Positions 2,453 to 21,073 of a DNA stretch of 50,938 nucleotides are shown piece after piece. A program made the position numbers and the translations under genes. The stretch's first letter is position 1; each line of letters begins with the position of its first letter. The stretch is taken from contig JAZQMI010000032.1 of the NCBI GenBank assembly GCA_045543375.1, positions 1 to 50,938 on the forward strand. The letters run 5' to 3'. The stretch is from Eubacteriales bacterium. GTDB taxonomy: Bacteria; Bacillota; Clostridia; Oscillospirales; CAG-272. Below the pieces are notes generated by a model. It was given only the letters and a program-made list of their open reading frames with translations. It was not told where the DNA came from and ran no database searches.

Positions 2453-3730
2453 TCAAATATGTCCGATATCGGCGATCTCTCCGCCGCCGTTTTCGGGGAC
2501 GAGCGCGTCGTCGAAATGGATCATGACGTTTTGCGAGGCGAGCTTTGCCTGCAGCGTCGGCACGTCGATCTCATCAATTCCCTTTCCCGTATCAATGGCC
2601 TGGCAAGCGGCAAGTCCTGCCGCCTGACCCGTGACGATGGCAGGCGGAATGACGCGCAGCACGTCCCACGCATACCCCTCGGCGGCTGCGCTGCGCCCTG
2701 CGGTGATCAAATTATCATATCCCGAGCAGATGAGCGTTCTGTACGGCACCTCCATCAGATAATCGCGGCGGTCAAAGTCACAGATGGCCGAGATGGAATC
2801 GTCAAAGTGACGGTAGAAATCGTTTTCCGTGAGTGCGTAGTCGCCCTTGATGCAGCGCGTGGTGCGGTACTGGCACATACCCGGCATGGTCACAACCTCG
2901 CGCGTAAAGCGGTCGGTCTTTTTGAGGTTGTTGAGCAGCTCCTTATGGTTGGTGATCAGATAGCGGTTAACGTCCTTGGCATCCGTGCCCGTATAGTAGG
3001 GCATGCCCTCGGGGTGCCCCCCACCGTACAGGTTGGCACCACCGCCCGACGCACCGCCGATGGCGTTGTTGATCTTGCCCGACTCGACCGCCTTCTTGCA
3101 CGAATCCAGCGTGACCGTCTTGACGAAAAAACTGTGGTAATTCTTGCCCTGCACGCAAGGCACACCCGCGCGGTACAGAATATCGGCATCGCCCGTCACG
3201 TCAATGACGATATCCGCCTCATAGTAGCCCGTGCCCGACTTGTTTTCGACGATCAGTCCCTTGCAATGCTTGCCCTCCATCACGGGGCGGGTGACGACGG
3301 TGTCGAACATGAGCTCGACGCCCTCGTCCGAGAGCAGCTCGGTCAGCGTCAGCGCGAAGATATCAGGGGAATAGCGGTTAAGATAGCGGGGATAGTTGCC
3401 GTTTTCCACGGCAGGTCCCTGATACGTACCGCCCTGCTCCCACCCCTTGGGAATGGTATCCCAGCTGTATTTGGTCGACAGGCGGAAAAACTCCTCGGCC
3501 ATGCCGAAAATGATCTGCTTACCGCGACCGTTGCACATGGGGACGAACAGATTGATCAGTCCCAGCGTGCCAAGACCGCCCAGCTTTTGCGATTTTTCGA
3601 TGAGCAGCACACTCTTGCCCTCACGCGAGGCGGCAAGTGCCGCCGCTGCACCGGCCAGACCGCCACCTGCAACGATAACGTCGTATTTACCGAGATGTTC
3701 ACACTCCAGCTGCAAGGTAATATTTGCCAT
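2453..3730 (-). CDS. FAD-dependent oxidoreductase (FAD_oxidored / GidA-like fold family)
   Basis: N-terminal dinucleotide-binding motif YDVIVAGGGLAGAAAALAASREGKSVLLIEK. RBS GGAGGA lies 4 nt upstream of the ATG at 3730. No signal peptide. Confidence 0.75.
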   Translation of the reverse strand: MANITLQLECEHLGKYDVIVAGGGLAGAAAALAASREGKSVLLIEKSQKLGGLGTLGLINLFVPMCNGRGKQIIFGMAEEFFRLSTKYSWDTIPKGWEQGGTYQGPAVENGNYPRYLNRYSPDIFALTLTELLSDEGVELMFDTVVTRPVMEGKHCKGLIVENKSGTGYYEADIVIDVTGDADILYRAGVPCVQGKNYHSFFVKTVTLDSCKKAVESGKINNAIGGASGGGANLYGGGHPEGMPYYTGTDAKDVNRYLITNHKELLNNLKKTDRFTREVVTMPGMCQYRTTRCIKGDYALTENDFYRHFDDSISAICDFDRRDYLMEVPYRTLICSGYDNLITAGRSAAAEGYAWDVLRVIPPAIVTGQAAGLAACQAIDTGKGIDEIDVPTLQAKLASQNVMIHFDDALVPENGGGEIADIGHI

Positions 3731-3822: not shown

Positions 3823-4605
3823 TCAGCTCTTTTTACCGTCCGCGCTGAACGAATTCCACTTGCCCGTGGGCTTGTGGCTTGCCTCAAGGCGGGCCAGACC
3901 CAGCTCGTTGTCCGGCATGAAGTCGATCCACATGTAGTGCATGTGACGGTCACCCGTGACCTCAACGCCGTGGTTGGAGCCCAGAGGGATGTAAAGAATG
4001 GTGTCGCCCTTCATGGGAATCTTGTCGTCGTCGATGATGACCTCCATGTCGTTCTCGGGGAAGCTGAAGAAGAACTGGTCGAGCATGGGATGGCTGTGGG
4101 GCTTGACCAGATCGTAACCAAACGACTCGACCGAGCCCAGCGAGAAGCGAGGAATGATCTTGTGGGGGATCATCATACGGCTGATGGTCTTCTCGCTCTT
4201 GTTGGGGTCGATGTACTGGATGGAGTTGCGGTACAGCACGTAGTGCGGGAAGGTCGTGCCGTACTCCTTGAGCATACCCTCATCCTCGGGGAAAATATCC
4301 CACTGGATCTCAAGTATCTGGGTATCGGTCAGAGCCTTAACGACAAGCTCCTGATCGGCACCGGGCACATAGGTCACTCTCTCGTTGAAGCGAATGGTTT
4401 CGCCGTTGCAGACGAAATCAGCCTCACCGCCGATGAGAATGAGAATGTGATAGTAGCCCGTGTTGGCGGCGAAAACGGTTTCGCTGCCGGCAACGATGGT
4501 ATGGTGGTAGGGACGCGAGCCGGGGATGACGCCGTGGCACAGCGGCAGCACGCGGTTTTCCTTTTGGGTCATGTCAATGACTTCCATGTGAAGATCGTAG
4601 TTCAT
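3823..4605 (-). CDS. cupin-fold protein, KduI/IolB-like sugar isomerase candidate
   Basis: I trimmed the tracked ORF (3823-4872) to the ATG at 4605, which is preceded by GAAAGGAA. The removed upstream part runs through palindromic repeat DNA. Cupin metal motif PHSHPMLDQ ... IPLGSNHGV. The layout resembles IolB/KduI (PHKHD ... PAGYHP) from memory. Confidence 0.6.
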   Translation of the reverse strand: MNYDLHMEVIDMTQKENRVLPLCHGVIPGSRPYHHTIVAGSETVFAANTGYYHILILIGGEADFVCNGETIRFNERVTYVPGADQELVVKALTDTQILEIQWDIFPEDEGMLKEYGTTFPHYVLYRNSIQYIDPNKSEKTISRMMIPHKIIPRFSLGSVESFGYDLVKPHSHPMLDQFFFSFPENDMEVIIDDDKIPMKGDTILYIPLGSNHGVEVTGDRHMHYMWIDFMPDNELGLARLEASHKPTGKWNSFSADGKKS

Positions 4606-4651
4606 GATGATATTCCTTTCTGCGGGACATTGCCCGTTCTTTGTGCTTTTT

Positions 4652-4982
4652 AGGGGAAACCCCACTTGTGGTTTCCCCTCTTTTTCGCTCCGCGAAAAAT
4701 TCACCCTTTCGGGCGCCTTGGAAGCATAGGGGATTTCGCCCTCTGCGGAGGGCGACGAGGGCTTCGCGCCCTCGACCGCGCCACCTTTTGAAAAAGGTGG
4801 ACGAAAACTCTTTATAACACACTGGCCATGTGTCTGAACTTCGACACCAGACTTTTGGGGCAGGGGCCCCAATTCACCCTTTGATGTTGTTGGGATAAAG
4901 GATGGGAGCTATCGAGCCAATTTTCCTTTTTTCCAAAAAGTTTTTGGGGGTCGTAGGGGACTTTTTTCAAAAAGTCCCCTAC
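4652..4982. repeat. array of eight back-to-back short GC-rich palindromic hairpins (REP/insulator-like)
   Basis: Stems at 4652-4679, 4681-4699, 4736-4755, 4756-4774, 4781-4800, 4855-4872, 4933-4947 and 4953-4982. The 12-mer AATTCACCCTTT occurs twice (4699 and 4871). Confidence 0.8.
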
Positions 4983-5000
4983 ATCCGTTTCCCTCGTTCC

Positions 5001-7211
5001 TCACTGATCCTCTTCCAATCGCGAGCCGTTGACCGACATAACGCGGTCGACGACGAGCTGACGGAAGGTGGGCGAGAGCATAGCGAAGAAGGCGGTAAAG
5101 CCCGTAACACGCACGACGAGGTCGGGATACTTCATGGGATCCTTGTGAGCCTCGAGTATCTTTTTGCCGTCGATGATATTGATGTTGAGCAGTGTGTTAC
5201 CCGTCGACATGATGGTCTTGATCATAGCGGCCATTTTGTCAACGCCCTCCTCGTCACCGACAATGCCGGGATCGAGCTCAAGCTGGACGGGCGCGCAGTT
5301 GCCGTAGCCGGGCTGGATCGCACCGATCGAGTTGCACATGGCGGTCACCGCACCGTCGCGGCGGAAGCCGCCGTTGGGGTTGGCACCGTGGTTGATGGGC
5401 TCGAACGCCTTGCGTCCATTGGGGGTCGCGCCGACCGTCTTACCAAGACCGATGGTATTCGACCAGGAGAAGAAGCCGGGAATGAAGTTGATTCCCTTAT
5501 ACTGATTGCAAAGATCGCGCACGAGCTTAGTGTACAGCTCGTTGACCTTTTGCGCCCATGCGTCACCCAACGTGCAGCCGCCACCGTAACGGGGGCTGTG
5601 CAGCAGCATCTGACGCACGTACTCGCCGCCCTCGAAGTTGCGGTCAAGCAGCTCGGTCAGCTTTTCGTAGGTCAGCTTACCCTCGCGGTCGATACGGCTC
5701 TCGCAGGCGGCAAAGCTGTCTGCCACCACGGCAAGGCCACTGCCATCCACGCACATGTTGTAGTAATTCGCGCCGCCGTCGGTGATGTTCAGACCCTTCT
5801 CGATCAGTCCGTGCTGGAACAGATTGAGAATGAGCTCGGGCTGGCTCTTGCTCTGATATTTCAGATGGTGCATGATGCCTGCGCCCGTTGCGTCAACGGC
5901 GACCTTGAGATGCTTCTGATAATAGCTCCACAGCTCGTCGATCGAGGGCTGCTCGCTATGTGCCATCATGTCGCGATAAGCAACGTCAAACACCTTGAGC
6001 AGATTGATCTTGACCGTGTCGTTCATGGTATATTCCATACCGGGAATGCACATCCAGTGGCAGCCTGCCGCCACGCGGCGACGCGCAAGATCCTGCGAAT
6101 AACCGCACTTCATAAATCCCGCAACGAGAGCGCTGTCAGACGAATAACGAGGCCAGCCCTGCTTGTTTTTGAACAGATAGGCAACCGACTTGCGGAAGAA
6201 GTCCTCGTTCATGTTATCGTGCACGCGCACGGTCAGGTTGCATGCGATATTGATCTTATCCGCAGCCTCAAGGCACAGATAAGAGATGTGCGAGATCATA
6301 TCCTCGCCGTTCTCGTCGGGACCGCCAAGCTGGAAGTAGCGGCTGTCCTGAAGGAACAGACAAGCAAGGTAGAAGACGGCCTCGTCGTCGGTCAGCTTAC
6401 CGGCAGCCACGTCGCGCTCGTAGTAGGGGCGCAGCATCTCATCAAGCTGTCCGCCCGCGCTTCCGCGGTTGTAGGTACGGGACAGCATGCTGAACCAGCA
6501 CATCCACTGTACCGCCTGACGGAAGGTCTCGGGCTTGCCCGAAACGATGGCACGGTTGCACTCTGCCATATCGACAAGATTCTGCTTGAGAACGGGGTGC
6601 GTTTCCTTTTCGGCAAGCGCCTCGATCTCGTCGGTCATGCGGCCGAGGAAGGCGATGATGGCCTTGACCACGGCGATCTCGGCGCGATAAAAGTCGGCGT
6701 GAGATTCGTCGTGCAGCTTTTCTTGCTCCTCAAGCTTTTGGAGGATTCCGCCCCAGCCCAGATCGAAACCGATCTGAAGATCGGGCGTGAAGTGATGACA
6801 GTTGTCGATACCCGAAATAATGTTGTAGCGATCGAAAATTTCTTGCAGATCGGGGTACGCATAATCGGGGTTCCACTTTTTCTTGGGTGGACGCAATCTC
6901 TCAAGGAACAGAAATCCCTTGCCAACGAATGCGTCGAGCGCGTCGATGTACAGCGGATGCTCCGAGAGCAATCGGCAATAGTTGCTCGACCAAGCGTCGT
7001 AGCCGTAGATAGAGCCGTTCTTGTGGCTGGGTTGCAGCTTGAATTTGAACTCGTCCTGAACGATCAGACCGTAGTCGTCCTCGTCTGCGCCGCCCAGCTT
7101 TGCCTTTTCAGCCGTCTGGTCGACCTTGCGCTGACGCAGAAGGGCAATTCTCTTGTCATAAGACAACTCTTCATCGGGAGAATAGCAGTTGATAAATTTG
7201 ATGGCACTCAT
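5001..7211 (-). CDS. glycyl radical enzyme (PFL-like superfamily), atypical, substrate unknown
   Basis: C-terminal glycyl radical motif VVRVTGFTAFF (Gly704, codon 5100-5102). Motif GATPNGRKAFEP matches the family ATPDGR motif. Cys loop AAGCHWMCIPG (Cys384). At 736 aa it is shorter than most GREs. It lies 2 nt downstream of its activase. Confidence 0.9.
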   Translation of the reverse strand: MSAIKFINCYSPDEELSYDKRIALLRQRKVDQTAEKAKLGGADEDDYGLIVQDEFKFKLQPSHKNGSIYGYDAWSSNYCRLLSEHPLYIDALDAFVGKGFLFLERLRPPKKKWNPDYAYPDLQEIFDRYNIISGIDNCHHFTPDLQIGFDLGWGGILQKLEEQEKLHDESHADFYRAEIAVVKAIIAFLGRMTDEIEALAEKETHPVLKQNLVDMAECNRAIVSGKPETFRQAVQWMCWFSMLSRTYNRGSAGGQLDEMLRPYYERDVAAGKLTDDEAVFYLACLFLQDSRYFQLGGPDENGEDMISHISYLCLEAADKINIACNLTVRVHDNMNEDFFRKSVAYLFKNKQGWPRYSSDSALVAGFMKCGYSQDLARRRVAAGCHWMCIPGMEYTMNDTVKINLLKVFDVAYRDMMAHSEQPSIDELWSYYQKHLKVAVDATGAGIMHHLKYQSKSQPELILNLFQHGLIEKGLNITDGGANYYNMCVDGSGLAVVADSFAACESRIDREGKLTYEKLTELLDRNFEGGEYVRQMLLHSPRYGGGCTLGDAWAQKVNELYTKLVRDLCNQYKGINFIPGFFSWSNTIGLGKTVGATPNGRKAFEPINHGANPNGGFRRDGAVTAMCNSIGAIQPGYGNCAPVQLELDPGIVGDEEGVDKMAAMIKTIMSTGNTLLNINIIDGKKILEAHKDPMKYPDLVVRVTGFTAFFAMLSPTFRQLVVDRVMSVNGSRLEEDQ

Positions 7212-7213
7212 CT

Positions 7214-8146
7214 TTATCCCACCTTTCCCACAATGCCTGCGCGCTCAATAAGAGCGAGCAGCTCGTCAAGGCGTGCCTTGTTCAAGGGTCTTGCGTCTGC
7301 GTGCGCGTTGGCTGCCGACAGCGACTCATACTTGGCACCGCCCAGCGTGTTGAAGTTGAGCAGCTCGTAGCGAACGAGATGCTTCATATTCTTAATATAG
7401 TCGGCGATTGCCGAAATGTTCTCATCCGTATCGGTCACACCGGGAATGAGCGGCGTGCGCACGATAAAGGGGACGCCCAGCTCGTCGAGCTTTTTGGCAT
7501 TTTCGAGCACCTTTTGGTTGCTCACGCCCGTATACGTCTTGTGCGCTTCGTCGTCCATCAGCTTGATATCGAACATAACGAGATCGCATTTTTGAAGTAC
7601 GCTCTCGATGCGGTCAAAATCAAAGCAAAGGTTGGTTTCAATGGCAGCGTGGATACCTTCGGCGTGCGCAGCGTCGATTAACTGCTCGACGAAAGGCGAC
7701 TGGCAAAGGCACTCGCCACCCGACACGGTCATGCCGCCGTTCGAATTGTCGTAGTAGGGCTTATCCTGCACGACCTCGGCCATGATCTCCTTGGCCGACA
7801 TTCTCTTGCCGCAAAGCTGCAGTGCCTCGGCGTAGCAGGCTGCGGCACATTTGCCGCAGCCAACGCATACGTCGCGATCGATGCTATGTACGCCGTTTGC
7901 GATGCTGTGTGCACCCTGCGGGCACACCTCAACGCACTTTCCGCAGCCGATGCAGCGGATGGGGTAAAACATGATCTCGGGCATGTGCTTGAGCGTTTCG
8001 GGGTTATGACACCACGAGCAATGCATCTGGCAGCCCTTCAAAAACACAGTGGTACGAATACCGGGGCCGTCCTGCAGCGAAAAACGCTGAATTTCGGTCA
8101 CGATGCCCTTGATCGCACCCGTGAGCTTGTTATCGTTGTCCATCAT
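7214..8146 (-). CDS. glycyl-radical enzyme activating protein (radical SAM)
   Basis: Radical SAM cluster GCQMHCSWCHNPE plus two ferredoxin-type motifs, CIGCGKCVEVCP and CVGCGKCAAAC. The 310-aa length is typical of non-PFL GRE activases. Confidence 0.9.
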   Translation of the reverse strand: MMDNDNKLTGAIKGIVTEIQRFSLQDGPGIRTTVFLKGCQMHCSWCHNPETLKHMPEIMFYPIRCIGCGKCVEVCPQGAHSIANGVHSIDRDVCVGCGKCAAACYAEALQLCGKRMSAKEIMAEVVQDKPYYDNSNGGMTVSGGECLCQSPFVEQLIDAAHAEGIHAAIETNLCFDFDRIESVLQKCDLVMFDIKLMDDEAHKTYTGVSNQKVLENAKKLDELGVPFIVRTPLIPGVTDTDENISAIADYIKNMKHLVRYELLNFNTLGGAKYESLSAANAHADARPLNKARLDELLALIERAGIVGKVG

Positions 8147-10034: not shown

Positions 10035-10160
10035 GATGTTTTCTCCTTTTCATTTTTTCATTTTTCATCGACTTATGTTTACATATTTCCATACACAATT
10101 ATTATATTGTTAAATGCGTTACAAATATATGACTTTTTTCTATAAAAATGAAACATTTTT

Positions 10161-10193
10161 ATGTTTTTGGGATGTTTTTGGGATGTTTTTGAT
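10161..10193. repeat. three tandem 11-bp units ATGTTTTTGGG (third copy degenerate), helically phased T-tracts
   Basis: ATGTTTTTGGG ATGTTTTTGGG ATGTTTTTGAT read directly, located in the divergent control region between the GRE operon and the SBP gene. Confidence 0.8.
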
Positions 10194-10291
10194 GAAGATA
10201 GAACGTTATATATGAAAAGCAACCGCGTTTCCCAATCAAATACGTGGTATTTTTCTATCATTTGTTTTAGAAATATCACAAAATAATCATA

Positions 10292-10320
10292 TTGACTTTT
10301 GAGAATATTTGTATTATAAT
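10292..10320 (+). promoter_or_regulatory. sigma-A promoter of the solute-binding protein gene
   Basis: TTGACT (10292-10297), 17-nt spacer, TATAAT (10315-10320). Confidence 0.7.
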
Positions 10321-10330
10321 GTATGGTGAA

Positions 10331-10355
10331 GAATGATTTCGTGAAAAAATCATTC
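10331..10355 (+). promoter_or_regulatory. 9-bp inverted repeat at the transcript start (operator or 5'-UTR hairpin)
   Basis: GAATGATTT - 7 nt - AAATCATTC, starting about 10 nt after the -10 box. No T-run follows, so it is not a terminator. Confidence 0.45.
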
Positions 10356-10381
10356 AAAAAGAGATAATGGAGGATAGTAGC

Positions 10382-11905
10382 ATGAAAAGATTGCTCACCC
10401 TGTTGCTGGCAGTGATGATGATCGCATCCGTATTTGCTTTCGTCGGCTGTGGCAACGACACACCCAACCCCGACCAGCCCGGTCAGCCCGACCAGCCCGG
10501 CACCACCGATCCTGCCACGCCCGGTAGCTCGGATCAGCCTGTCGGCGACGGTATTGACTACATCACGCAGGTCGAAGTAGAAAACTTCAACAATGCATGG
10601 ATCACCATCCTTTGCCGTGAGGACAAGGAGTACGAGATGTACACCGAAGAGGATGCCGCCGCTCTGGTCGATCAGGCCGTTTACGCTCGTAACAACCGCG
10701 TAGCTGACCTGTTCAAGGTTCAGATCGAAACGCATCCCGTTGCAGGTACCTGGGAGCAGCAGCAGACCTACATTCAGGCTCTGGCTCAGTCGGTTTCTGC
10801 CGGTGACGACGCTTATCAGATCGCCGCTACGCACACGGCTTACAACTCCAACTTGACCATTCAGGAGCAGTACTACGATCTGCGCACGCTGGGCAACGCC
10901 ATCAACCTGGACGCCGCTTGGTGGTCGCAGTCGTTCAATGAGAACTGCACCGTTTACGACAAGCTGTTCTTCACCACCGGTGACCTTGCCCTGACCATGT
11001 GGGAGGGTATGTACGCCGTATACTTCAACAGAAAGCTTGCTACCGACTACGGTGTCGGCGATCTGTATCAGATGGTCCGCGACAAGGAGTGGACGATCGA
11101 GACGCTGACCGAGCTCACCGCAGGTCTGTATCAGGACAACGGTGATGACACCATGGGTCCCGAGGATACCTACGGTCTGCTGATCAACCGTCACGCAATG
11201 CGCGTATTCCTGACCACCTGCCAGCTTCCCATCTGCCAGCGTACGACGGACGGCGGCTACAAGCTGACCCTCATGGACGAGGAGCACATTGATAAGACCA
11301 CGACCGTATACGATAATCTTTACGATCTGATCTATGAGAACGATGGTACTTACGATTCCCAACTGCAGGACGGCGACTACACCGAGATGAACGAGATCTT
11401 CACCGCAGGCCGCTCGCTGTTCATGATGGGTGAGCTTCGCGTCACGCCCTCTCTCCGCGCCGCTGATATGGAGTTCGGTATCCTTCCCTTCCCCAAGTAC
11501 GACGAGGAGCAGGAAGAGTACTACGCTCACACCTACGACGGTCTGTCTTCCTTCGCTATCCCGCTGTCCGCTAAGGATCCCGCCATGTGCGCTAAGATCC
11601 TGGACGCTATGGGTGCAGAAAACAAGACTTCCGTTATCCCCGCTTACAACGAGATCGTGCTTGACGGTCGTGTAGCTCAGGACGGCGATTCCCGCGAGAT
11701 GCTGGGTATCATCCGTGACAACCTGTACTTCGACTTTGGTTTCGTTTACTCCAACACCATGGGTACTTCGGGCGTTTCCGGTCCCTTCGCTCTGTACGGT
11801 GACGCACTGCGCAGAGGAAGCGAGTCCTTCATCTCCGAGTGGGATCAGTATGCAACTGCACTGGCTACCAACTTGGAGGACGTGCTGGCCAAGTTTGACC
11901 AGTAA
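10382..11905 (+). CDS. extracellular solute-binding lipoprotein (family 1 sugar ABC SBP, about 500-aa LplA/YtcQ-like class), orphan
   Basis: Start set at the ATG at 10382, 8 nt after GGAGG. Signal peptide with lipobox MKRLLTLLLAVMMIASVFAFVGC, then a Pro/Asp/Gln-rich linker. Size and composition fit large sugar SBPs. No permease genes are nearby. Confidence 0.75.
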   Translation: MKRLLTLLLAVMMIASVFAFVGCGNDTPNPDQPGQPDQPGTTDPATPGSSDQPVGDGIDYITQVEVENFNNAWITILCREDKEYEMYTEEDAAALVDQAVYARNNRVADLFKVQIETHPVAGTWEQQQTYIQALAQSVSAGDDAYQIAATHTAYNSNLTIQEQYYDLRTLGNAINLDAAWWSQSFNENCTVYDKLFFTTGDLALTMWEGMYAVYFNRKLATDYGVGDLYQMVRDKEWTIETLTELTAGLYQDNGDDTMGPEDTYGLLINRHAMRVFLTTCQLPICQRTTDGGYKLTLMDEEHIDKTTTVYDNLYDLIYENDGTYDSQLQDGDYTEMNEIFTAGRSLFMMGELRVTPSLRAADMEFGILPFPKYDEEQEEYYAHTYDGLSSFAIPLSAKDPAMCAKILDAMGAENKTSVIPAYNEIVLDGRVAQDGDSREMLGIIRDNLYFDFGFVYSNTMGTSGVSGPFALYGDALRRGSESFISEWDQYATALATNLEDVLAKFDQ

Positions 11906-11920
11906 TTCCCGAACATATTG

Positions 11921-11952
11921 CGAGGGTGCACTGCGGTGCACCCTCGTTTTTT
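11921..11952 (+). terminator. rho-independent terminator
   Basis: CGAGGGTGCAC tgcg GTGCACCCTCG followed by TTTTTT. Confidence 0.85.
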
Positions 11953-12127
11953 GTTGCATTGATTCCCTTCGTTTTACGGCAGCTTGAATTTGCACTATTT
12001 TTTCTTGATTTTTTTGTTTAAAATCGGATTTTTTTATACTTTGCTATCGCCGTTTATCGTACCATGGGCGTTTGACACTATTTTTTAAATTATTTCATTT
12101 GAAATTAAAGTTTTTGATACTATATTA

Positions 12128-12230: not shown

Positions 12231-13133
12231 ATGGAGGGGACGACGCTTATGGAAGATTTTTACCTGGAACGGAGATTGCGTATCTTCACGGATAGCGATC
12301 CCATCACGTTCGCATACAAAACGTCTTACGACGTTCCGTCGATTCACAATCTGCATATTCACCACAACTACGAGTTGTATTTTTATATTGAGGGTGACGC
12401 CGATTACATCGTCAACAATGCTTATTATAAGCTGCACCGTGGCGACGTTATGATCATCAGCCCCAATGAAACACATATGCTGGTACTCAAAAAGCCGTGT
12501 CAGTACACTCGCTTTTATATGGTATTCCCGCCTAACGTGTTCATCAACCACATCATCAACCCACTCCAGACGCTGCTGCGCCGCACGACGGGTGGCTCTG
12601 CCAAGCTGACACTGACTCCCGATATGTGGGATCGCGTATACGGCATGATGCAGGACATTCTTCGCGTTTGCCGCGACGACCCCGATGATTCGGGCGAGCT
12701 TCTGCACACCAAGATCTACGCCATGCTGCTGCAACTGTTGTGCTCGTTGAGCGAAAAAACCACTTCGGTGCAGTCGGTCGGCGACCAGTTCGGTGCGGCA
12801 CATCTGCCCGGCCCCATGCGCGAGGCCATGGCTTACATTGAAACGCACCTGACGCAAAACATCACGGTGCGCGAGATTGCCGAGGCCATTCATATCTCTC
12901 CGCCTTATCTGTCCTCGATCTTCCGCAAGCACATGGGCGTGCCGCTGGTCACCTATCTGCAAACGCGCAAGATCGTGCTCGCCAAGCAAATGCTGGAGGA
13001 GGGGCGGTCGGTCACCTACGCCTGCTATGAGAGCGGATTTTCGGATTGCTCGTATTTCATTCGCATCTTCAAGCGTCATCTCGGCATGACGCCGCTGCAA
13101 TACCGCAATTCCTTCCGCAACTCGGAAAAATAA
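12231..13133 (+). CDS. AraC family transcriptional regulator (N-terminal cupin sensor + C-terminal double HTH)
   Basis: N-terminus has an AraC-type cupin (HIHHNYELYFYIEGDADY...HRGDVMIISPNETH). C-terminus has the HTH_18 pattern (IAEAIHISPPYLSSIFRKHMG ... ACYESGFSDCSYFIRIFKRHLGMTPLQYR). The start could instead be the ATG at 12249. Confidence 0.9.
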   Translation: MEGTTLMEDFYLERRLRIFTDSDPITFAYKTSYDVPSIHNLHIHHNYELYFYIEGDADYIVNNAYYKLHRGDVMIISPNETHMLVLKKPCQYTRFYMVFPPNVFINHIINPLQTLLRRTTGGSAKLTLTPDMWDRVYGMMQDILRVCRDDPDDSGELLHTKIYAMLLQLLCSLSEKTTSVQSVGDQFGAAHLPGPMREAMAYIETHLTQNITVREIAEAIHISPPYLSSIFRKHMGVPLVTYLQTRKIVLAKQMLEEGRSVTYACYESGFSDCSYFIRIFKRHLGMTPLQYRNSFRNSEK

Positions 13134-13173: not shown

Positions 13174-16170
13174 TTATTCCTTGGCAAACGCCTCGTTGAG
13201 CATGCGTGCAATGTTCCGCATGCGCTCGGCGTCGACTTTGACCGCTTGGCGGTCGTAGGTAACAAGACCGTTGACCTCGTCCTCGACGTCGCTGAGCTGT
13301 GTCAGCACAAGCGCGCAGAGATTGGTATTGCGCAATGCGGGCACAATCTGTTCGCCGTACAGGTGCTCCAGAGCCGTGATCAGCTCGTCTGTGCTGTGAT
13401 AGGTCGCATAGCCGTAGCTTGCATCAAGATTGAAAATATGACCGTCCACGCCAAGACAATAGCCGCCAAATTCGGACAGCACGATCGGGAGCGTTTGATT
13501 TGATCTGAGGCGAACGGGCTTGAAATAAACGTGCTCACTTTGAACGTCGCTGCGTCGGGGTCTGAACCAGCCCGATGCGCTGTCCCAGATGCGCGTCGGA
13601 TCAAGCAGCTTCATTTCATCGTAGATGCGCGCGGTATCGTACTGTCCCCAGCCCTCGTTAAAAATGGTGTAGTAACAGACGCAGGGACTGTTGTACAGCA
13701 GATTAACCGTTTCCTTGGCCGCACCTTCAAAGGCGGCGCGGCGGCGCGGACTTGCGTGATGTGCAATGCCACGTTTGAAGGCAACGGTCGGCAGCGCGGT
13801 GTCGATCAGAAACGAATAGTTGCCGCTGTTGACCATGTCCTGGAACACGGACATGCCCAAGAGATCGCAATAGTAATAGAACAACGCAGGCTCGATCTTG
13901 ATGTGCTTGCGCAGCATGTTAAAGCCCAGCGACTTGGCCGTTTGAATATCAAAGCGGTAACCCTCGGGATCAGCGGGCAGATAGATGCCGTCGCTGAAAT
14001 AGCCCTGATCGAGCAGGCCGTGGAACAGATAGGGCTTACCGTTGAGCGCGGTCACGGGACCGTTATTTGTATCAACGACCGTGACGGTGCGCAAGGCGAA
14101 ATAGGACTCGACTCTGTCCTCACCGCACACGAGCGTGAAGCGGTAGAGATAGGGGTGCTCGGGCGACCAGAGGTGTACCTCGTCGGGTGCGAGCGTGAAC
14201 ACGTCACCCTCGTAGCAGTATTCACGATCCCCTGCCTCGGTATGCAGCACGATCGTCTTTTGCGCCGTGCCTCCCGTCGTTTCCACCGTCACGCACTCAG
14301 TCGACGGCGTCAAACGCAAAGAGCGGATATGCTCGGCGGGCAACGCTTCCATCCAGACCGTTTGCCAGATGCCGCTGGTGGGCGTGTACCACATGCCGCC
14401 GCGACGCTCGCGCTGCTTGCCGTAGGGCAGTTCCCGATCAAGCGCGTCCTGCACGCGGACGGTCAGCGTGTTTTCTCCCTCGCGCCACGCGCTTGTCACG
14501 TCAATCGAAAAAGGATGATAGCCACCCTCGTGCTCACCGACGGGCGTGCCGTTCAAGCATACCCGGGCAATCTGATCGACCGCGCCAAAGTGCAGCATCA
14601 GCCGCTTGCCCTCACCAAAAAATCCGTCGGGCAACGTGACCGTGCGCTCGTAAACAAGAATATCTTGTTTTTCAAAGCGGCACTCAATGCCCGAGGCGCG
14701 GGATTCGGGCGGAAACGGCACGAGAATATCACCCACACACTCGGTCTGCCCCTCACGCTCAAGAGCGAGTGACCAGCGACCGTTCAGGCACAGGTAGGAA
14801 TTGCGCTTCATTTGCGGACGGGGATATTCCTGCCACGGAATGTCGCCCATGTTCTGTTCAAATGGCGTGCCGAGCGACACCGTACGGGGCATTTTTTTGT
14901 GTCCGATCCACCACACGAGCAGCACGACGGGCACGGCGGCAAGCAATGCTGCCACGAAGATATTTTGATTGGGTACGAACGAGGTCGTTCCGTCGCCGTT
15001 GACCACAACGTCAGCGTTGCGCAGCACCGTCTTACCGATCCACGGACCGATGACACCGGGCAGCAGCACCTGCGAGCAAATGCGTACGCCTTGCAGCATA
15101 CCCGAACGCCCAGCGGGGGTCAGATCGCGAATGAGGGCACCGAACACGGCCATGCCGCAAAGGTAGCCGCACATCATGAGCAGCGAGCCAACGAACACAA
15201 GTACCGTTCCACGGAACAGCATGAGCAGCACGTAACCGACCATCAAAGACGCCAGTGCCGGCATGACCGCGCCCGAAAATCCGCGCTTGTCGTACACGTG
15301 CCCCCAGAAAAAGGTAGCGACCGACGCAAGCACGATGGCGGGTGCCATGATGAGCACGTAATCCTTCATGCCCAGCGACACCTCGTAATAAAGAATGAGG
15401 TAAGGCATGAAGATCTGAATGGAAATATTAAATACGACAAAGGTGATCAAGGCGCGGTAGAGCGTGGGGTTTTTGCGCACCGTCGAGGGGCGGAAGCCGT
15501 AAACGATGCCCTGCCAATAGGGCACGTCACTTTTTCTGATGGGCGGCTCTTTGATCAAAAACAGCCCTGCGATGCCAACGACAAGCGTCAGCGCGCCGAT
15601 GATGGCAAAGATATACGACCAGCTTTGGCTTTCGTCCAGATTGAACGCCATAAAGCCACCAAACACACAGAGAATGGCGACCAGCGGCATCATGGCGTTG
15701 ATACCCTCGGCCGCGCCGCGGTTGCCCTCATCGGTCATGTCGGTCAGCCAGGCGTTGAAGGCGGCGTCATTGGCGGTCGAGCCGAAGAAGGTCATGACGC
15801 AGTCCATGATGATGACCAAGGAAACGCCCACGGCAGCCGCCGACACGGTCATGGGAACGAGCGGCTCGATGACGTCAAGTCGGATAAACACAAAGCTGAA
15901 AATCGAGATGCCCCAGAGGATATAACCGCCGCACATGAACAGCTTGCGCTTGCCCACGCGGTCGGACAGCGCGCCCATGAGCACCGTCGTCAGCGTGGCT
16001 GCCACGGCGCTGGCGGCAACCATGGCGGAAATATCCGATGGAGTTGCGTTGAACATCTTATAGATAAAGACGTTGAAATACATGTTTTCCACGACCCAGG
16101 CGATCTGACCCATCAACGAAAAGACGGTCAGTGCGCACAAAAATCGCGGCGATAGCTTGCTTTTGCTCAT
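13174..16170 (-). CDS. fusion protein: GPH/MFS-type glycoside transporter (aa 1-425, about 12 TM) + glycoside hydrolase family 2 (aa 440-998)
   Basis: One uninterrupted 998-aa ORF. The N-terminal half is hydrophobic and MFS-like (..GALSDRVGKRKLF..). The C-terminal half has a GH2 sugar-binding region (LHFGAVDQIARVCLNGTPVGEHEGGYHPFSIDVT), acid/base IFNEGWG and a nucleophile-like LSEFGG. RBS AAAAGGAGAAG. Confidence 0.8.
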   Translation of the reverse strand: MSKSKLSPRFLCALTVFSLMGQIAWVVENMYFNVFIYKMFNATPSDISAMVAASAVAATLTTVLMGALSDRVGKRKLFMCGGYILWGISIFSFVFIRLDVIEPLVPMTVSAAAVGVSLVIIMDCVMTFFGSTANDAAFNAWLTDMTDEGNRGAAEGINAMMPLVAILCVFGGFMAFNLDESQSWSYIFAIIGALTLVVGIAGLFLIKEPPIRKSDVPYWQGIVYGFRPSTVRKNPTLYRALITFVVFNISIQIFMPYLILYYEVSLGMKDYVLIMAPAIVLASVATFFWGHVYDKRGFSGAVMPALASLMVGYVLLMLFRGTVLVFVGSLLMMCGYLCGMAVFGALIRDLTPAGRSGMLQGVRICSQVLLPGVIGPWIGKTVLRNADVVVNGDGTTSFVPNQNIFVAALLAAVPVVLLVWWIGHKKMPRTVSLGTPFEQNMGDIPWQEYPRPQMKRNSYLCLNGRWSLALEREGQTECVGDILVPFPPESRASGIECRFEKQDILVYERTVTLPDGFFGEGKRLMLHFGAVDQIARVCLNGTPVGEHEGGYHPFSIDVTSAWREGENTLTVRVQDALDRELPYGKQRERRGGMWYTPTSGIWQTVWMEALPAEHIRSLRLTPSTECVTVETTGGTAQKTIVLHTEAGDREYCYEGDVFTLAPDEVHLWSPEHPYLYRFTLVCGEDRVESYFALRTVTVVDTNNGPVTALNGKPYLFHGLLDQGYFSDGIYLPADPEGYRFDIQTAKSLGFNMLRKHIKIEPALFYYYCDLLGMSVFQDMVNSGNYSFLIDTALPTVAFKRGIAHHASPRRRAAFEGAAKETVNLLYNSPCVCYYTIFNEGWGQYDTARIYDEMKLLDPTRIWDSASGWFRPRRSDVQSEHVYFKPVRLRSNQTLPIVLSEFGGYCLGVDGHIFNLDASYGYATYHSTDELITALEHLYGEQIVPALRNTNLCALVLTQLSDVEDEVNGLVTYDRQAVKVDAERMRNIARMLNEAFAKE

Positions 16171-17443: not shown

Positions 17444-18214
17444 TTATTCTCCGAGTGGATGGAAAAATATTCGCTTACGTCCGCCATCGTCATACAGCAC
17501 GACGGGCTGCATACCAAAGACGCGGACGGGGATATCGGTATCAAGCAGTTCGTTCGGCGTACCGACAAAGCCGATCGTTCCATCGCAAACGACGATCAAT
17601 CGGTCGGCGTATTGCATGGCACACGAGAGGGAATGTGTCGCGGCAAGTACCGCTTTTTTCCTGTCGCGGCACAAGCCCTTCAGCAGCCCGAAAAAGTGGT
17701 GTTCATGATCGGCGTCCATAAAGGCGGTCACCTCGTCAAGCAGCATGAGCGGTGTATTTTGCGACAGCATCATGCCCAGATACGCCCGACGCGCCTCACC
17801 GCCCGACAGACAATCAAGATATGCGTCTGCCAGATCGGTCAATTCGGCGTCGTGCAAAGCGGCTGCGATCGCACGCGTGCAGTCGGGTGTTGACGTGCCG
17901 TTCAAGGATTGATACGGGCTGAGCCCCATCGCAACAAGCTCTCTTACCTTGATGTGCGGCAGCGCGGGCTGCTGCTGCATGAGTGCTACGCGGCGGGCAC
18001 GCTCGCGTGGGGAAAGGGAGAGTAAGTCCTGCCCGTCAAGGCGCACGCTTCCGCGGCAAGGCAAAAGCCCGCAGACAGTATGAAGCAGCGTGGACTTTCC
18101 ACTGCCGTTGCGCCCGATCACGGCAACGAATTCGCCTCTTTCAAGGCCAAAAGAAACGTCATGAAGAACTTCTTTTCGCTCATATCCGAGCGAGAAAATC
18201 TGACATTGCAGCAC
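17444..18214 (-). CDS. ABC transporter ATP-binding protein, iron-chelate/cobalamin (FecE/BtuD) type
   Basis: Walker A GRNGSGKSTLL, signature LSGGEARR, Walker B LMLLDEVTAFMD. GTG start at 18214, 6 nt after AGGAGG. Confidence 0.85.
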   Translation of the reverse strand: MLQCQIFSLGYERKEVLHDVSFGLERGEFVAVIGRNGSGKSTLLHTVCGLLPCRGSVRLDGQDLLSLSPRERARRVALMQQQPALPHIKVRELVAMGLSPYQSLNGTSTPDCTRAIAAALHDAELTDLADAYLDCLSGGEARRAYLGMMLSQNTPLMLLDEVTAFMDADHEHHFFGLLKGLCRDRKKAVLAATHSLSCAMQYADRLIVVCDGTIGFVGTPNELLDTDIPVRVFGMQPVVLYDDGGRKRIFFHPLGE

Positions 18215-18225
18215 GTGGCACCTCC

Positions 18226-19236
18226 TTACAGCATTCTGCCCCGACGGAGCAGCAGCACAAGAAAGAAGGGGGCACCGACAAGTGCCATAACGATACCGAC
18301 GGGAATTTCGGTGGGAGATGCGACCACGCGACCAACAAGGTCACCAAGCACGCAGACGTTCGCACCAAGCAAGGCGGTGCACAGCGTTTGCCACCTCGTC
18401 CCCGTGCGACAGAAACGGCGCGACACGTGCGGCACGATCAGTCCCACAAAACCAAGCAACCCCGCCACGCTGACCGCGCAGGCAGCCAGCGCCGAGGCAA
18501 GCAAGACACAGCCCAGGCGCAGCGCGCGAACGCGAACGCCAAGCGACGCCGCTCCCGTTTCTCCAAGGCACAAAAGATCAATGCGGTTTCCAAGCAAAAA
18601 GCAGGCAGCCGCACACAGCGTAATAGCGGCGGCGGGCACGGCGAGCACGGCGAGCGTAACGCCGCCAAAGCCGCCGATCGAAAAAGCGTGATAGGACGAG
18701 AGCAGGTCTGCGTCCGCATAAGTAAAGCAAGAGATACCGGCGCCCAACAGCGCGGTCATGGCCACGCCCGCCAGCACGATGGCACTTTTGCCACCACCGG
18801 CTCGATGGGCAAGAGCAAGAATGACAAGTGCGGTCAAAAAGGCACCGACAAAAGCAAACAGCGGCGTCAGGGCATCGGCGGCGGGGACAAAAAACAGCAT
18901 GAGCACGATGGCAAGCCCGGCCCCTGCATTGACACCGATGATATTCGGCGCGGCAAGCGCATTATCGGTCACCGCTTGCAGCAACAGTCCCGACAACCCA
19001 AGTCCCGTACCGACGACCACGCCGGCCAACACACGCGGCAGGCGGACGGCGTACAGCACGACGCGCTGTATCTCATAGCCCTCGCGCCCAAAAAGCCCGC
19101 CCAAAAAGGCGTCCGTGCTCATATGCGCGCTGCCAAAACGCAGCCCAAGCCACATGGACAGTGCAAGCACCGCCGCAAGCAGTCCTATGCGCCACCACGC
19201 GCCATGCGGGGCGCGTCTTCCCAGTTTCTTACTCAT
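18226..19236 (-). CDS. FecCD/BtuC-family ABC permease
   Basis: Family pattern LRLPRVLAGVVVGTGLGLSGLLLQAVTDNALAAPNIIGVNAGAG. About 9-10 TM segments. Overlaps the upstream SBP gene by 8 nt. Confidence 0.9.
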   Translation of the reverse strand: MSKKLGRRAPHGAWWRIGLLAAVLALSMWLGLRFGSAHMSTDAFLGGLFGREGYEIQRVVLYAVRLPRVLAGVVVGTGLGLSGLLLQAVTDNALAAPNIIGVNAGAGLAIVLMLFFVPAADALTPLFAFVGAFLTALVILALAHRAGGGKSAIVLAGVAMTALLGAGISCFTYADADLLSSYHAFSIGGFGGVTLAVLAVPAAAITLCAAACFLLGNRIDLLCLGETGAASLGVRVRALRLGCVLLASALAACAVSVAGLLGFVGLIVPHVSRRFCRTGTRWQTLCTALLGANVCVLGDLVGRVVASPTEIPVGIVMALVGAPFFLVLLLRRGRML

Positions 19237-20149
19237 CTAACAACTCCGAAAGCACCGAATACGCCTCGTACCAACGAGCGTTCGGCTTATATTGAAACAA
19301 CTCTTTATCCAGATATCGGACACGACCGTTTTGTACGGCGTCAAGCGTCTGCCAGGTGCTCTTGCGCAGCATGGCGTCCATATTGGCGCGCGCTGCGTCC
19401 TCGTCGCCCATGGTCGTGATCAGGATCAGATCGGGATTGGCGGCCATAATGACCTCCATGGCAAGACCGTCCACAAGAACGGGGGCCTCGTCGGCCAAAT
19501 TGCGTGCGCCAAGCTCACACAGCATGGCAGCAGCAAAATGCTGCTCGGACGTTTTGGCCTTGGTCGAGCGAGCGGACGAGCCGGCACGCAAAAACAGCAC
19601 CGTCTTTCCCTCGCCCCCACGCGATGCGGCGAGCAAGGCGTCGATGTTGGTCTTTTGCGCTTCGCCGTACTGCTCGTAGGCGGCGGTATTTCCCGTGACG
19701 TCAGTCATCACGCGTAACACGCGCAGATAATCGTCAAAGCATTCCAGACGAAACAGTGCCACCGGCGTGCCTGCTCCGCGCAACAGTGCCGCGCATTCCA
19801 CGTGGGCGGCAATATCCGCCGAGCCTATGACAAAATCAGGCTGATAGGAGAGCAGCAGCTCGGTATTGACCGTTTTGCCTGCCCCCGCATCCACAAGCAG
19901 CACGCCGTCGGGCACGATCCCCCGCTCGACCGCCTCGCCCACCGTAACAGCAACCTCGCCACCGGCGAGCTGCCAGATATCGGCAAACGAAGAAAAGAGA
20001 ACCGCCACACGGCGCGGCTGTTCCTCCAACGACACACGCTGACCGCTATCGTCGGTAAAGCTCACGTAGGCGTCGTCAGAGGACGGCGTAGGTGCCGCGC
20101 AGCCGACCAGCAGCAGCGCGACAAACAGCGCAAGCAAACGTTTCTTCAT
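19229..20149 (-). CDS. periplasmic-binding-protein-family lipoprotein (BtuF/FhuD-like substrate binding protein)
   Basis: Lipobox MKKRLLALFVALLLVGC. Motifs PRRVAVLFSSFADIW..., PDFVIGS and PDLILITTM are typical of class III SBPs. Confidence 0.8.
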   Translation of the reverse strand: MKKRLLALFVALLLVGCAAPTPSSDDAYVSFTDDSGQRVSLEEQPRRVAVLFSSFADIWQLAGGEVAVTVGEAVERGIVPDGVLLVDAGAGKTVNTELLLSYQPDFVIGSADIAAHVECAALLRGAGTPVALFRLECFDDYLRVLRVMTDVTGNTAAYEQYGEAQKTNIDALLAASRGGEGKTVLFLRAGSSARSTKAKTSEQHFAAAMLCELGARNLADEAPVLVDGLAMEVIMAANPDLILITTMGDEDAARANMDAMLRKSTWQTLDAVQNGRVRYLDKELFQYKPNARWYEAYSVLSELLDE

Positions 20150-20152
20150 GGA

Positions 20153-21073
20153 TCAATCAGCAAGGATTTCGGCCTTGCGTTCAAGCAGCTCGTCCGACAG
20201 AATGAGGCGTTCGGCCTCATCAAAACCGACGCGGGCGACCGTATCGGCCAGTCGCTCGCCTGCTACGCCGTAGGCGCGGAAGAACAAAATGGTCTTTTCC
20301 ACCGTCAAAAGCAGTTGCTCGCGGTCGGTCAGGATAACCGAGAGAGGTTGACCGCGTCCCACCTTTTTACCCCAGCGACCGCCGATGTACACGCGATAGC
20401 CCTCGCGCTCGGTTTTCATGGCTTTGAAAGGACATGCGGCGATGCAACGGCCGCAGCTGTTACACACCGTCGTGTCAATGACGGGCTTACCGTCTGACAG
20501 CTTGACCGCCTTCATGGGGCATTTTGCCTCGACCTGACAAATCTTGCACGCGCGGCAGATGCTCTCGTCAAGCACAGGCACACGCTGACCGACGATGCCC
20601 ACGTCATTAAGATCGGGCTTGACACAGTTGTTCGGGCAACCGCCGACCGCAATCTTGAATTTGTGCGGCAGCTTGACGCTATGGTACCCTTGGTAAAAAC
20701 GCTCGTGAATGGCGAGCGAGATGTCAAACGTGTCGATCAGACCGTACTGGCAGGTCGTACCTTTACAGGACACGACGGGACGCACGCGCGGACCCGTGCC
20801 GCCCGTGCTCATGCCATGCTCGGCAAGATAGGCGATGAGCGGGTCAATATTGTCATACGGGATCTTTTGAATTTCGACCGTCATACGCGTCGTCATGGCA
20901 AGCTCGCCGTTGCCAAATCGCTCGGCGGCGTCGGCCATGATGCGAAACTGCTCGGCCGTGACCTTACCGTTTTTTGTGATTACGCGGGCATTGAAGCAAT
21001 CCTCGGTCGTTTTATCGCGCAAAAAGCCCAAGCCTTTGACACGCGTGATCTCCTGTGCGGAAGGAATACTCAT
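20153..21073 (-). CDS. nitrite/sulfite-reductase-like Fe-S protein with inserted 2x[4Fe-4S] ferredoxin domain (small Dsr/Asr-like)
   Basis: NiR/SiR ferredoxin-like half-domain, Cys clusters SCKGTTCQ ... GGCPNNC (siroheme-coupled cluster pattern), plus CRACKICQVEAKCP and CNSCGRCIAACP. Confidence 0.65.
   Translation of the reverse strand: MSIPSAQEITRVKGLGFLRDKTTEDCFNARVITKNGKVTAEQFRIMADAAERFGNGELAMTTRMTVEIQKIPYDNIDPLIAYLAEHGMSTGGTGPRVRPVVSCKGTTCQYGLIDTFDISLAIHERFYQGYHSVKLPHKFKIAVGGCPNNCVKPDLNDVGIVGQRVPVLDESICRACKICQVEAKCPMKAVKLSDGKPVIDTTVCNSCGRCIAACPFKAMKTEREGYRVYIGGRWGKKVGRGQPLSVILTDREQLLLTVEKTILFFRAYGVAGERLADTVARVGFDEAERLILSDELLERKAEILAD

Follow-up and report, generated by a model that had tools for sequence, protein, structure and literature searches.

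What reaction is catalyzed by a glycyl radical enzyme (GRE) whose catalytic Cys loop carries Trp where characterized eliminases and isomerases carry Glu? The question is raised by a gene in a 50,938-nucleotide stretch of DNA from an Eubacteriales bacterium (contig JAZQMI010000032.1; hereafter, the window), whose 736-residue GRE product has a loop reading Gly-Cys-His-Trp-Met-Cys. An earlier note on this DNA had described the hexapeptide GCHWMC as a non-canonical thiyl-radical loop and had argued that it marks a mechanistically distinct subfamily. Judged from alignments and a tree, the C-x-W motif sets apart a deep and exclusive GRE clade, which is defined by the change from Glu to Trp. Our overall reading, to which we assign a probability of about 0.65, is that the protein is a functional member of this clade that would act on a sugar-type substrate by radical C-O cleavage, with the base relocated from the Cys loop to another part of the active site.

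The catalytic cysteine and the site of the missing glutamate

The gene specifies an intact GRE, and an activase is encoded next to it. In Pfam its product matches PF02901 (PFL-like, E 3.9e-97) and PF01228 (Gly_radical, E 2.6e-14), and the features of the GRE superfamily are present: a PFL-like barrel, a C-terminal glycyl radical domain, the RVxG[FYW] motif, the Cys-loop Cys, and a radical S-adenosylmethionine (SAM) activase. An AlphaFold2 (AF2) model, with a predicted local distance difference test (pLDDT) score of 79.9, was compared with the solved GREs by use of Foldseek, which returned template modeling scores of about 0.7 to every one of them (0.72 to 1r8w) at identities of 22% or less. 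Re-reading of the minus-strand codons (Table 1) gave the same residues 383 to 388 that had been reported, and the glycyl radical motif RVTGF, said earlier to be intact, occupies residues 701 to 705 and is invariant in 120 homologues. Since both AAGCHWMC and RVTGF are kept in all of the 120 closest database clusters (74-95% identity, 729-754 residues), the hexapeptide is neither a chance occurrence nor a sequencing artefact.

In phmmer alignments with 2f3o, E. coli PflD, CutC, and HplG, the segment A-G-C-H-W-M-C-I-P-G pairs without gaps with x-G-C-V/I-E-x-x-x-P/x-G. The same gap-free pairing of the Cys loop was obtained in a family-profile search against PflD, glycerol dehydratase (GDH), CutC, 2f3o, and S. 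dysgalactiae PflD. In all, six solved GREs have their catalytic Cys aligned with C384 and the Glu of their CXE motif aligned with W386. Because these alignments are free of gaps, C384 is, by homology, the counterpart of the thiyl-radical Cys, in agreement with the earlier assignment, and W386 stands where the CXE motif has its glutamate. No characterized GRE class in a 2026 review of the superfamily has a loop with Trp at this position (PMC13450708).

The protein contains 17 cysteines, and the thiyl residue could be one other than C384, situated in a canonical context. However, C384 is the sole Cys that is invariant over both the C-x-W and the C-x-E representatives described below, it matches the catalytic Cys of the six structures, and at no other Cys of the protein does a C-x-E or C-C context line up with the Cys loop of a solved GRE. 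We give this alternative next to no credence.

The profile alignment with GDH begins exactly at position 140 of the window protein, opposite GDH residue 164 (H-F-T-P-D in the query, H-V-S-V-D in GDH), so that H140 is predicted to correspond to GDH His164 and hence also to HypD His160. The other pairings with GDH are D398 with Asp447, S251 with Ser282, G250 with His281, and F581 with Tyr640.

Extent and signature of the C-x-W clade

When 1.84 billion representatives clustered at 50% identity were searched exhaustively with HMMER, 4357 relatives were obtained, and motifs were read in the best 150 of these. Among the 150, all full-length proteins scoring above about 250 bits have G-C-x-W followed by P-G-x-E-Y, where x is H, N, F, Q, Y, P, or G and the residue at +4 is C, S, A, N, G, or V. 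The canonical G-C-V-E is confined to the weaker matches. A family-profile alignment was used to compare 25 full-length C-x-W representatives with 63 C-x-E representatives. Residue 386 is Trp in all 25 of the former, down to about 27% identity, and Glu in all 63 of the latter. In a neighbor-joining tree the 25 form one clade with no other protein inside; one outlier, P0181 (GCSWGL), is placed outside it.

Five positions change together with W386. These are W153 (22 of the 25 C-x-W representatives, with Leu or Phe in C-x-E), R245 (20 of 25, rare outside), E459 (all 25, vs about 8% of C-x-E), W583 (18 of 25, with Val, Phe, Tyr, or Met in C-x-E), and N611 (21 of 25, rare outside). Four further positions are likewise kept in the clade and rare elsewhere: E393 is found in 23 and D398 in 24 of the 25, position 645 is Glu or Asp in 20 (mainly Lys in C-x-E), and T703, the Thr of RVTG, is typical. 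Position 140 is His in 21 of the 25 and in 41 of the 42 aligned C-x-E representatives.

The remainder of the hexapeptide is conserved at close range only. H385, W386, and C388 are all invariant in the 120 close homologues, but across the clade His is found at 385 in just 6 of 25 representatives (the +1 residue being N, H, F, or Q across the sister subfamilies) and Cys at 388 in just 6, with A, S, V, N, or G in the rest. Alignment thus identifies H385 and C388 as traits of the nearest family alone (at least 70% identity). The true signature is C-x-W with its co-varying positions, because only these hold across the clade. Of the loop singled out by the earlier note, C384 and W386 are clade-conserved, while the hexapeptide as a whole is not a mechanistic unit. 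A metal or cluster site made up of C138, H139, H140, H385, and C388 was considered as a feature of the clade and rejected, only H140 being kept beyond the nearest family. The length of 736 residues, which had been cited as shorter than usual, is indeed short relative to the characterized enzymes but is not distinctive, since the uncharacterized C-x-E representatives range from 649 to 943 residues, with many at 700-760.

The low-confidence loops of the AF2 model (residues 135-140, 246-253, 393-397, 609-624, and 634-639; about 5295-6809 of the window) coincide with family-invariant segments, namely DNCHHF, TYNRGS, EYTMN, GANPNGGFRxDG, and PGYGN. These loops are probably active-site or Gly-loop-contacting elements that lack a template-like precedent.

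Some of the distant GREs collected in the search have other motif combinations. Among P0269, P0169, P0223, and P0230, one has RVATY, with Ala at the site of the radical Gly, which may make it an aminoacyl radical enzyme; in several of the others, GCWE loops are paired with RV(W/G)G[FW] motifs.

Distribution and gene neighborhood

In a scan of one genome per species, the GRE was found in at least 93 species-level genomes, all of them metagenome-assembled genomes (MAGs). Most belong to the Clostridia (Oscillospiraceae, Christensenellaceae, and Lachnospiraceae), and a minority to the Spirochaetales/Sphaerochaeta, Kiritimatiellae, and Verrucomicrobia. The MAGs were recovered from the guts of ruminants and of Hadza and Nepalese people. 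The assembly index has no exact copy of the window protein, and its nearest relative, at 95% identity, is in a Clostridia MAG from yak caecum. The neighbor counts given below were taken from those loci in other genomes that are 12 kb or longer, 60 in number.

In the window the genes run on the minus strand in the order TIM-barrel/Gfo-Idh-MocA fusion, activase, GRE, bicupin, and FAD-dependent oxidoreductase of family PF12831, and the usual order in the related loci is activating enzyme, GRE, bicupin, ManA-like cupin. The activase gene, whose stop codon lies 3 nt upstream of the GRE start, adjoins the GRE gene in 59 of the 60 loci. Its product has the cluster motif CQMHCSWC (CX3CX2C; 8009-8032) and two ferredoxin-like motifs. 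A Gfo/Idh/MocA gene occurs in 52 loci, and a TIM barrel is matched in 28 with the fused-type query and in 31 with the separate-type query. The Gfo half resembles glucuronide-3-dehydrogenase, DgpA, and 1,5-anhydrofructose reductase (sugar/glycoside 3-dehydrogenases), and for the TIM barrel the similarities are to D-psicose 3-epimerase, 5-keto-L-gluconate epimerase, and IolO.

The most tightly linked partner is the bicupin, present in 58 of the 60 loci and nearly always immediately downstream of the GRE. It has an H-x-H...H metal motif and a confidently modeled bicupin fold, and its Foldseek matches are generic only (BacB, an IolB-like protein, and KduI). The ManA-like cupin, which scores 109 bits vs a cut-off of 116 for class I mannose-6-phosphate isomerase, occurs in 51 loci and is absent from the window and from the locus of the 95%-identical relative. 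The PF12831 FAD protein is found in 19 loci. The sister C-x-W GREs P0121 and P0123 (53% and 45% identity) lie beside monosaccharide or oligosaccharide ABC transporters and ROK or LacI regulators, and also beside two Gfo genes and the PF12831 FAD family, a member of which adjoins P0123. Many of the related loci also have AraC genes ahead of the operon, and regulators of this family suggest a small-molecule inducer. The 638-residue open reading frame (ORF) that follows the AraC gene in the window and a neighboring 193-residue ORF have no match in Pfam, NCBIfam, or the PDB, and neither is present in the 80 related GRE loci.

Table 1. Coordinates of the GRE gene, its motifs, and neighboring genes in the window
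Feature	Position	Strand	Basis
GRE gene, 736 residues plus stop, C-x-W clade member	5001..7211	-	Pfam, Foldseek, homologues
Hexapeptide G383-C384-H385-W386-M387-C388	6048..6065	-	Reverse complement GGC TGC CAC TGG ATG TGC
C384, predicted thiyl site	6060-6062	-	Homology alignments
W386, at the CXE glutamate position	6054-6056	-	Homology alignments
Remaining Cys-loop hairpin I389-D398, including P390-G391-x-E393-Y394 and D398	6018..6047	-	
Glycyl radical motif R701-V-T-G704-F705	5097..5111 (Gly704 5100-5102)	-	Invariant in 120 homologues
H140, predicted equivalent of GDH His164 and HypD His160	6792..6794	-	Profile alignment
E459, invariant acidic residue specific to the C-x-W clade, candidate relocated general base	5835..5837	-	
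W583, strand position of CutC Ile700, HypD Thr645, and IslA Val680	5463..5465	-	CutC alignment
W153, Trp specific to the C-x-W clade	6753..6755	-	22/25 representatives
GRE activating enzyme, radical SAM, 310 residues	7214..8146	-	TIGR02494, 342 bits vs cut-off 174; Pfam Radical_SAM and Fer4
Xylose-isomerase-like TIM barrel and Gfo/Idh/MocA oxidoreductase fusion, 628 residues	8148..10034	-	Pfam
Bicupin, 260 residues, start MNYDLH, H170-x-H172 and H212	3823..4605	-	AF2 pLDDT 91.6
FAD-dependent oxidoreductase PF12831, accessory operon member	2453..3730	-	Pfam
638-residue ORF between the AraC regulator and the TIM-Gfo fusion	10079-11995	-	
AraC-family regulator, upstream of the operon	12231..13133	+	Split from the operon by the 638-residue ORF

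A non-coding spacer of 395 nt (4606-5000) separates the GRE stop from the bicupin start; the closest relative has 213 nt here. Several strong palindromes are found in the spacer of the window, and one of them, GTAGGGGACTTTTT/AAAAAGTCCCCTAC, lies right after the GRE stop and on its sequence looks like a terminator. Rfam gave no RNA element in the window, including this spacer.

Further from the operon, a minus-strand ORF of 998 residues (13174-16170) has an MFS transporter domain (residues 32-376) and a GH2-like region (from about residue 500) with no stop between them. This could be a true, if unusual, fusion of transporter and glycosidase; alternatively, an assembly or frame artefact has joined two genes. 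A GH2 gene is also found at the contig edge in the 95%-identical relative. We looked to the glycosidases for an indication of the substrate and set them aside as lineage-specific (GH2 in the window and in L006, GH78 and GH94 in L003). The minus-strand region 17444-21073 has a small nitrite/sulfite-reductase-like 4Fe-4S protein (20153-21073) beside a set of FecCD, periplasmic-binding, and ABC transporter genes; the distance from the 4Fe-4S gene to the GRE is about 13 kb, and the related loci whose annotations were read showed no gene like it.

Two other loci have unusual arrangements. The first carries two GRE-activase pairs, in the order GRE, activase, AraC, TIM, Gfo, activase, GRE, bicupin, ManA-like, FAD oxidoreductase, which suggests local duplication of the radical enzyme pair. 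The second (L010, 5397-11160) has a 30%-identical C-x-W GRE (GCFWYC) with two URO-D family genes, which flank it on both sides, near a SIS protein and a sugar ABC transporter, a context unlike that of the window operon.

Comparison with characterized glycyl radical enzymes

Every characterized 1,2-eliminase (GD, PD, HpfG, HypD, HpyG, HpzG, CutC, IslA, IseG, and HpsG) and every characterized GRE isomerase (HplG, YbiW, and PflD) keeps the CXE motif (PMC13450708). The decarboxylases HPAD and IAD have Glu at +2 and PAD has Gln, and adjacent cysteines in the loop occur only in PFL and TdcE (PMC13450708). In PflD/YbiW the CXE glutamate deprotonates the C2 hydroxyl (PMC13450708), and in HypD the Cys-loop Glu and His are both essential (PMC7077986).

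No NCBIfam GRE model reaches its cut-off with the window GRE. The PFL2/glycerol dehydratase family model TIGR01774 gives 272 bits vs a cut-off of 678, and the CutC, HypD, HpsG, HpfG, and PflD models give 185-217 bits vs cut-offs of 1000-1109. The decarboxylase models NF033718 and NF033715 give 115 and 112 bits vs cut-offs of at least 1100, and the neighboring genes encode sugar enzymes. The PFL model TIGR01255 gives 73 bits vs a cut-off of 994, and C384 is followed by H385, so that the loop has no adjacent cysteines. Similarity to the X-succinate synthases TutD and MasD is weak (66-75 bits), and no small-subunit genes were noticed among the conserved neighbors, where small ORFs were not searched systematically. 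The homologues carry generic database names, such as "formate acetyltransferase" or hypothetical. We found no description of a C-x-W GRE or of the operon in the literature, including the superfamily review (PMC13450708), and no solved structure or curated family model for the clade. The same sources likewise gave no sign that the GCHWMC loop defines an already characterized clade.

The GDH of C. butyricum (1r8w) and the other 1,2-eliminases (PD, HypD, CutC, IslA, and HpsG) share with the window protein their fold, Cys loop, and Gly loop, and an activase of the two-ferredoxin type is a further likeness to the 1,2-eliminases. At an identity of about 20%, GDH His164 and Asp447 have equivalents in H140 and D398, and F581 stands at the position of Tyr640. 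However, Glu435 of GDH is replaced by Trp386 and His281 by Gly250, and the window GRE is about 50 residues shorter. The gene context also differs from that of GDH and the 1,2-eliminases, with a sugar dehydrogenase, an epimerase, and cupins and no aldehyde-processing or microcompartment genes.

PflD/YbiW, which open the rings of 1,5-anhydromannitol-6-phosphate and 1,5-anhydroglucitol-6-phosphate (8yjo, 8id0, and 8id7), are the sole characterized sugar-acting GREs. PflD is the top profile match among solved structures, at 222 bits, and the PG-x-x-Y hairpin that follows the Cys is similar in the two (GCVELSIPGRTY vs GCHWMCIPGMEY). PflD/YbiW differ in keeping CXE, in having phosphorylated substrates, and in their association with phosphotransferase system (PTS) and aldolase genes, whereas the window clade has Trp in the loop and no conserved kinase, PTS, or aldolase. 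Precedents for a Cys loop without Glu at +2 are PAD (Cys482-x-Gln484) and PFL (Cys418-Cys419). There, however, the replacement is Gln or an adjacent Cys, and the enzymes belong to other clades and to aromatic-acid or pyruvate metabolism.

Proposed reaction and alternatives

The conserved operon of Gfo/Idh/MocA dehydrogenase, epimerase-like TIM barrel, and cupins suggests a sugar or glycoside as substrate. The likeliest candidates are neutral sugars, glycosides, or cyclitol derivatives that belong to a dehydrogenase/epimerase/isomerase pathway. The most likely chemistry, as predicted from the sequence comparisons, is radical C-O cleavage with a relocated base. With H140 (His164) and D398 (Asp447) kept, the enzyme may still be an eliminase or isomerase in spite of the Trp.

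In the mechanism that we propose, the neighboring radical SAM activase would install the radical on Gly704, from which it would be relayed to Cys384, and the Cys384 thiyl radical would abstract a hydrogen atom from the substrate. The substrate would be unphosphorylated, and the proteins encoded by the co-transcribed genes (Gfo/Idh/MocA dehydrogenase, ketose-3-epimerase-like TIM barrel, and metal-binding bicupin) would either make it or use it up. W153, W386, and W583 could form an aromatic platform that stacks on the carbohydrate ring, and acid-base chemistry could be provided by H140 and D398 together with E459 and E393, in place of the Glu that the Cys loop lacks. On this view the enzyme would carry out a dehydration or a ring-opening isomerization within a keto-sugar pathway, with H385 and C388 acting as specificity residues of the nearest family, outside the core mechanism.

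Several points weigh against this proposal. The loss of the Glu may equally mean that the chemistry needs no base. W583 was placed solely through the alignment with CutC Ile700, E459, W153, and W583 are putative neighbors of C384, and the AF2 pLDDT falls below 50 in loops 135-140, 246-253, 393-397, and 609-639. The Gfo, TIM, and cupin neighbors belong to generic families, and the operon is not accompanied across loci by any transporter, kinase, or aldolase that could point to the substrate.

A chemistry without any Cys-loop base would amount to a new class of GRE reaction on carbohydrates, for example C-C bond formation or cleavage, epimerization by abstraction and return of hydrogen, or decarboxylation, comparable to the X-succinate synthases and to PAD with its C-x-Q. 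The replacement of Glu by a non-ionizable Trp in every one of the 25 representatives, the branching of the clade apart from all C-x-E representatives, and the fact that the characterized GREs without the loop Glu (PFL and PAD) are not eliminases all fit such a chemistry. We consider it less likely than the proposed mechanism, although a serious rival to it: the eliminase-type His140 and Asp398 are kept, the acidic residues E393 and E459 could stand in as the base, the sugar-dehydrogenase and isomerase neighbors suit elimination or isomerization of a keto-sugar, and small subunits of the BSS or HPAD kind were not noticed in a neighborhood whose small ORFs were not systematically searched. A related proposal is that the C-x-W clade is a new functional class, in which a Trp cage (W153, W386, and W583) and E459 as base would support a chemistry, not known from any other GRE, on unphosphorylated (keto-)sugars, glycosides, or cyclitols, for instance the cleavage or rearrangement of a 3-keto-glycoside by a radical route. 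We find this attractive but doubtful. As for the earlier suggestion of a mechanistically distinct subfamily, the clade is indeed distinct and exclusive, but with the eliminase His and Asp in place a difference in mechanism is only conjectured.

The second Cys of the loop brings to mind a mechanism like that of PFL, in which C384 and C388 would cooperate by radical relay or through a covalent intermediate on the second Cys. PFL and TdcE do use two loop cysteines (PMC13450708), and the window protein and all 120 close homologues have two. The spacing, however, is i/i+4 and not adjacent, the PFL model scores far below its cut-off, and Cys is found at +4 in only 6 of the 25 representatives. Because H385 and C388 both vary across the clade, a second catalytic Cys is unlikely, and we regard the two-cysteine mechanism as very improbable. 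The absence of the CXE glutamate and the scores below the curated cut-offs of all NCBIfam GRE models could also be read as signs of a degenerate, non-catalytic paralogue that has lost its catalytic Glu and serves, for example, in radical storage or regulation. It is hard to reconcile this with the 354 of 736 positions that are invariant over 121 sequences (the query and its 120 closest homologues), the Cys, Gly, and loop among them, with a dedicated activase beside all but one of the 60 GREs, or with a clade that has kept its synteny across Clostridia, Spirochaetales, Kiritimatiellae, and Verrucomicrobia. Degeneration is thus an explanation in which we place hardly any confidence. Radical C-O cleavage with a relocated base remains the reading that we prefer.

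Significance

The C-x-W GRE appears to be an uncharacterized variant of a known enzyme type. It will come as no shock to specialists, since many unannotated GRE clades are known to exist, but it is a well-defined and attractive target. GREs are oxygen-sensitive radical enzymes, and their reactions in gut microbes, among them the formation of trimethylamine, hydrogen sulfide, p-cresol, and skatole and the use of hydroxyproline, are relevant to the host. The main obstacle in the field is the assignment of function to unannotated clades (PMC13450708). The C-x-W clade is easily recognized by G-C-x-W...P-G-x-E-Y together with E459 and RVTG, and its compact, conserved operon directly suggests enzyme-coupled assays.

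The clade departs from the rule that sugar-acting and eliminating GREs have a Cys-loop Glu. Its reaction, once solved, would either show how a base can be relocated within the GRE scaffold or reveal a new radical reaction of carbohydrates. If the clade were indeed a new functional class, it would represent a widespread and unrecognized anaerobic carbohydrate pathway in the guts of herbivores and of humans on high-fiber diets.

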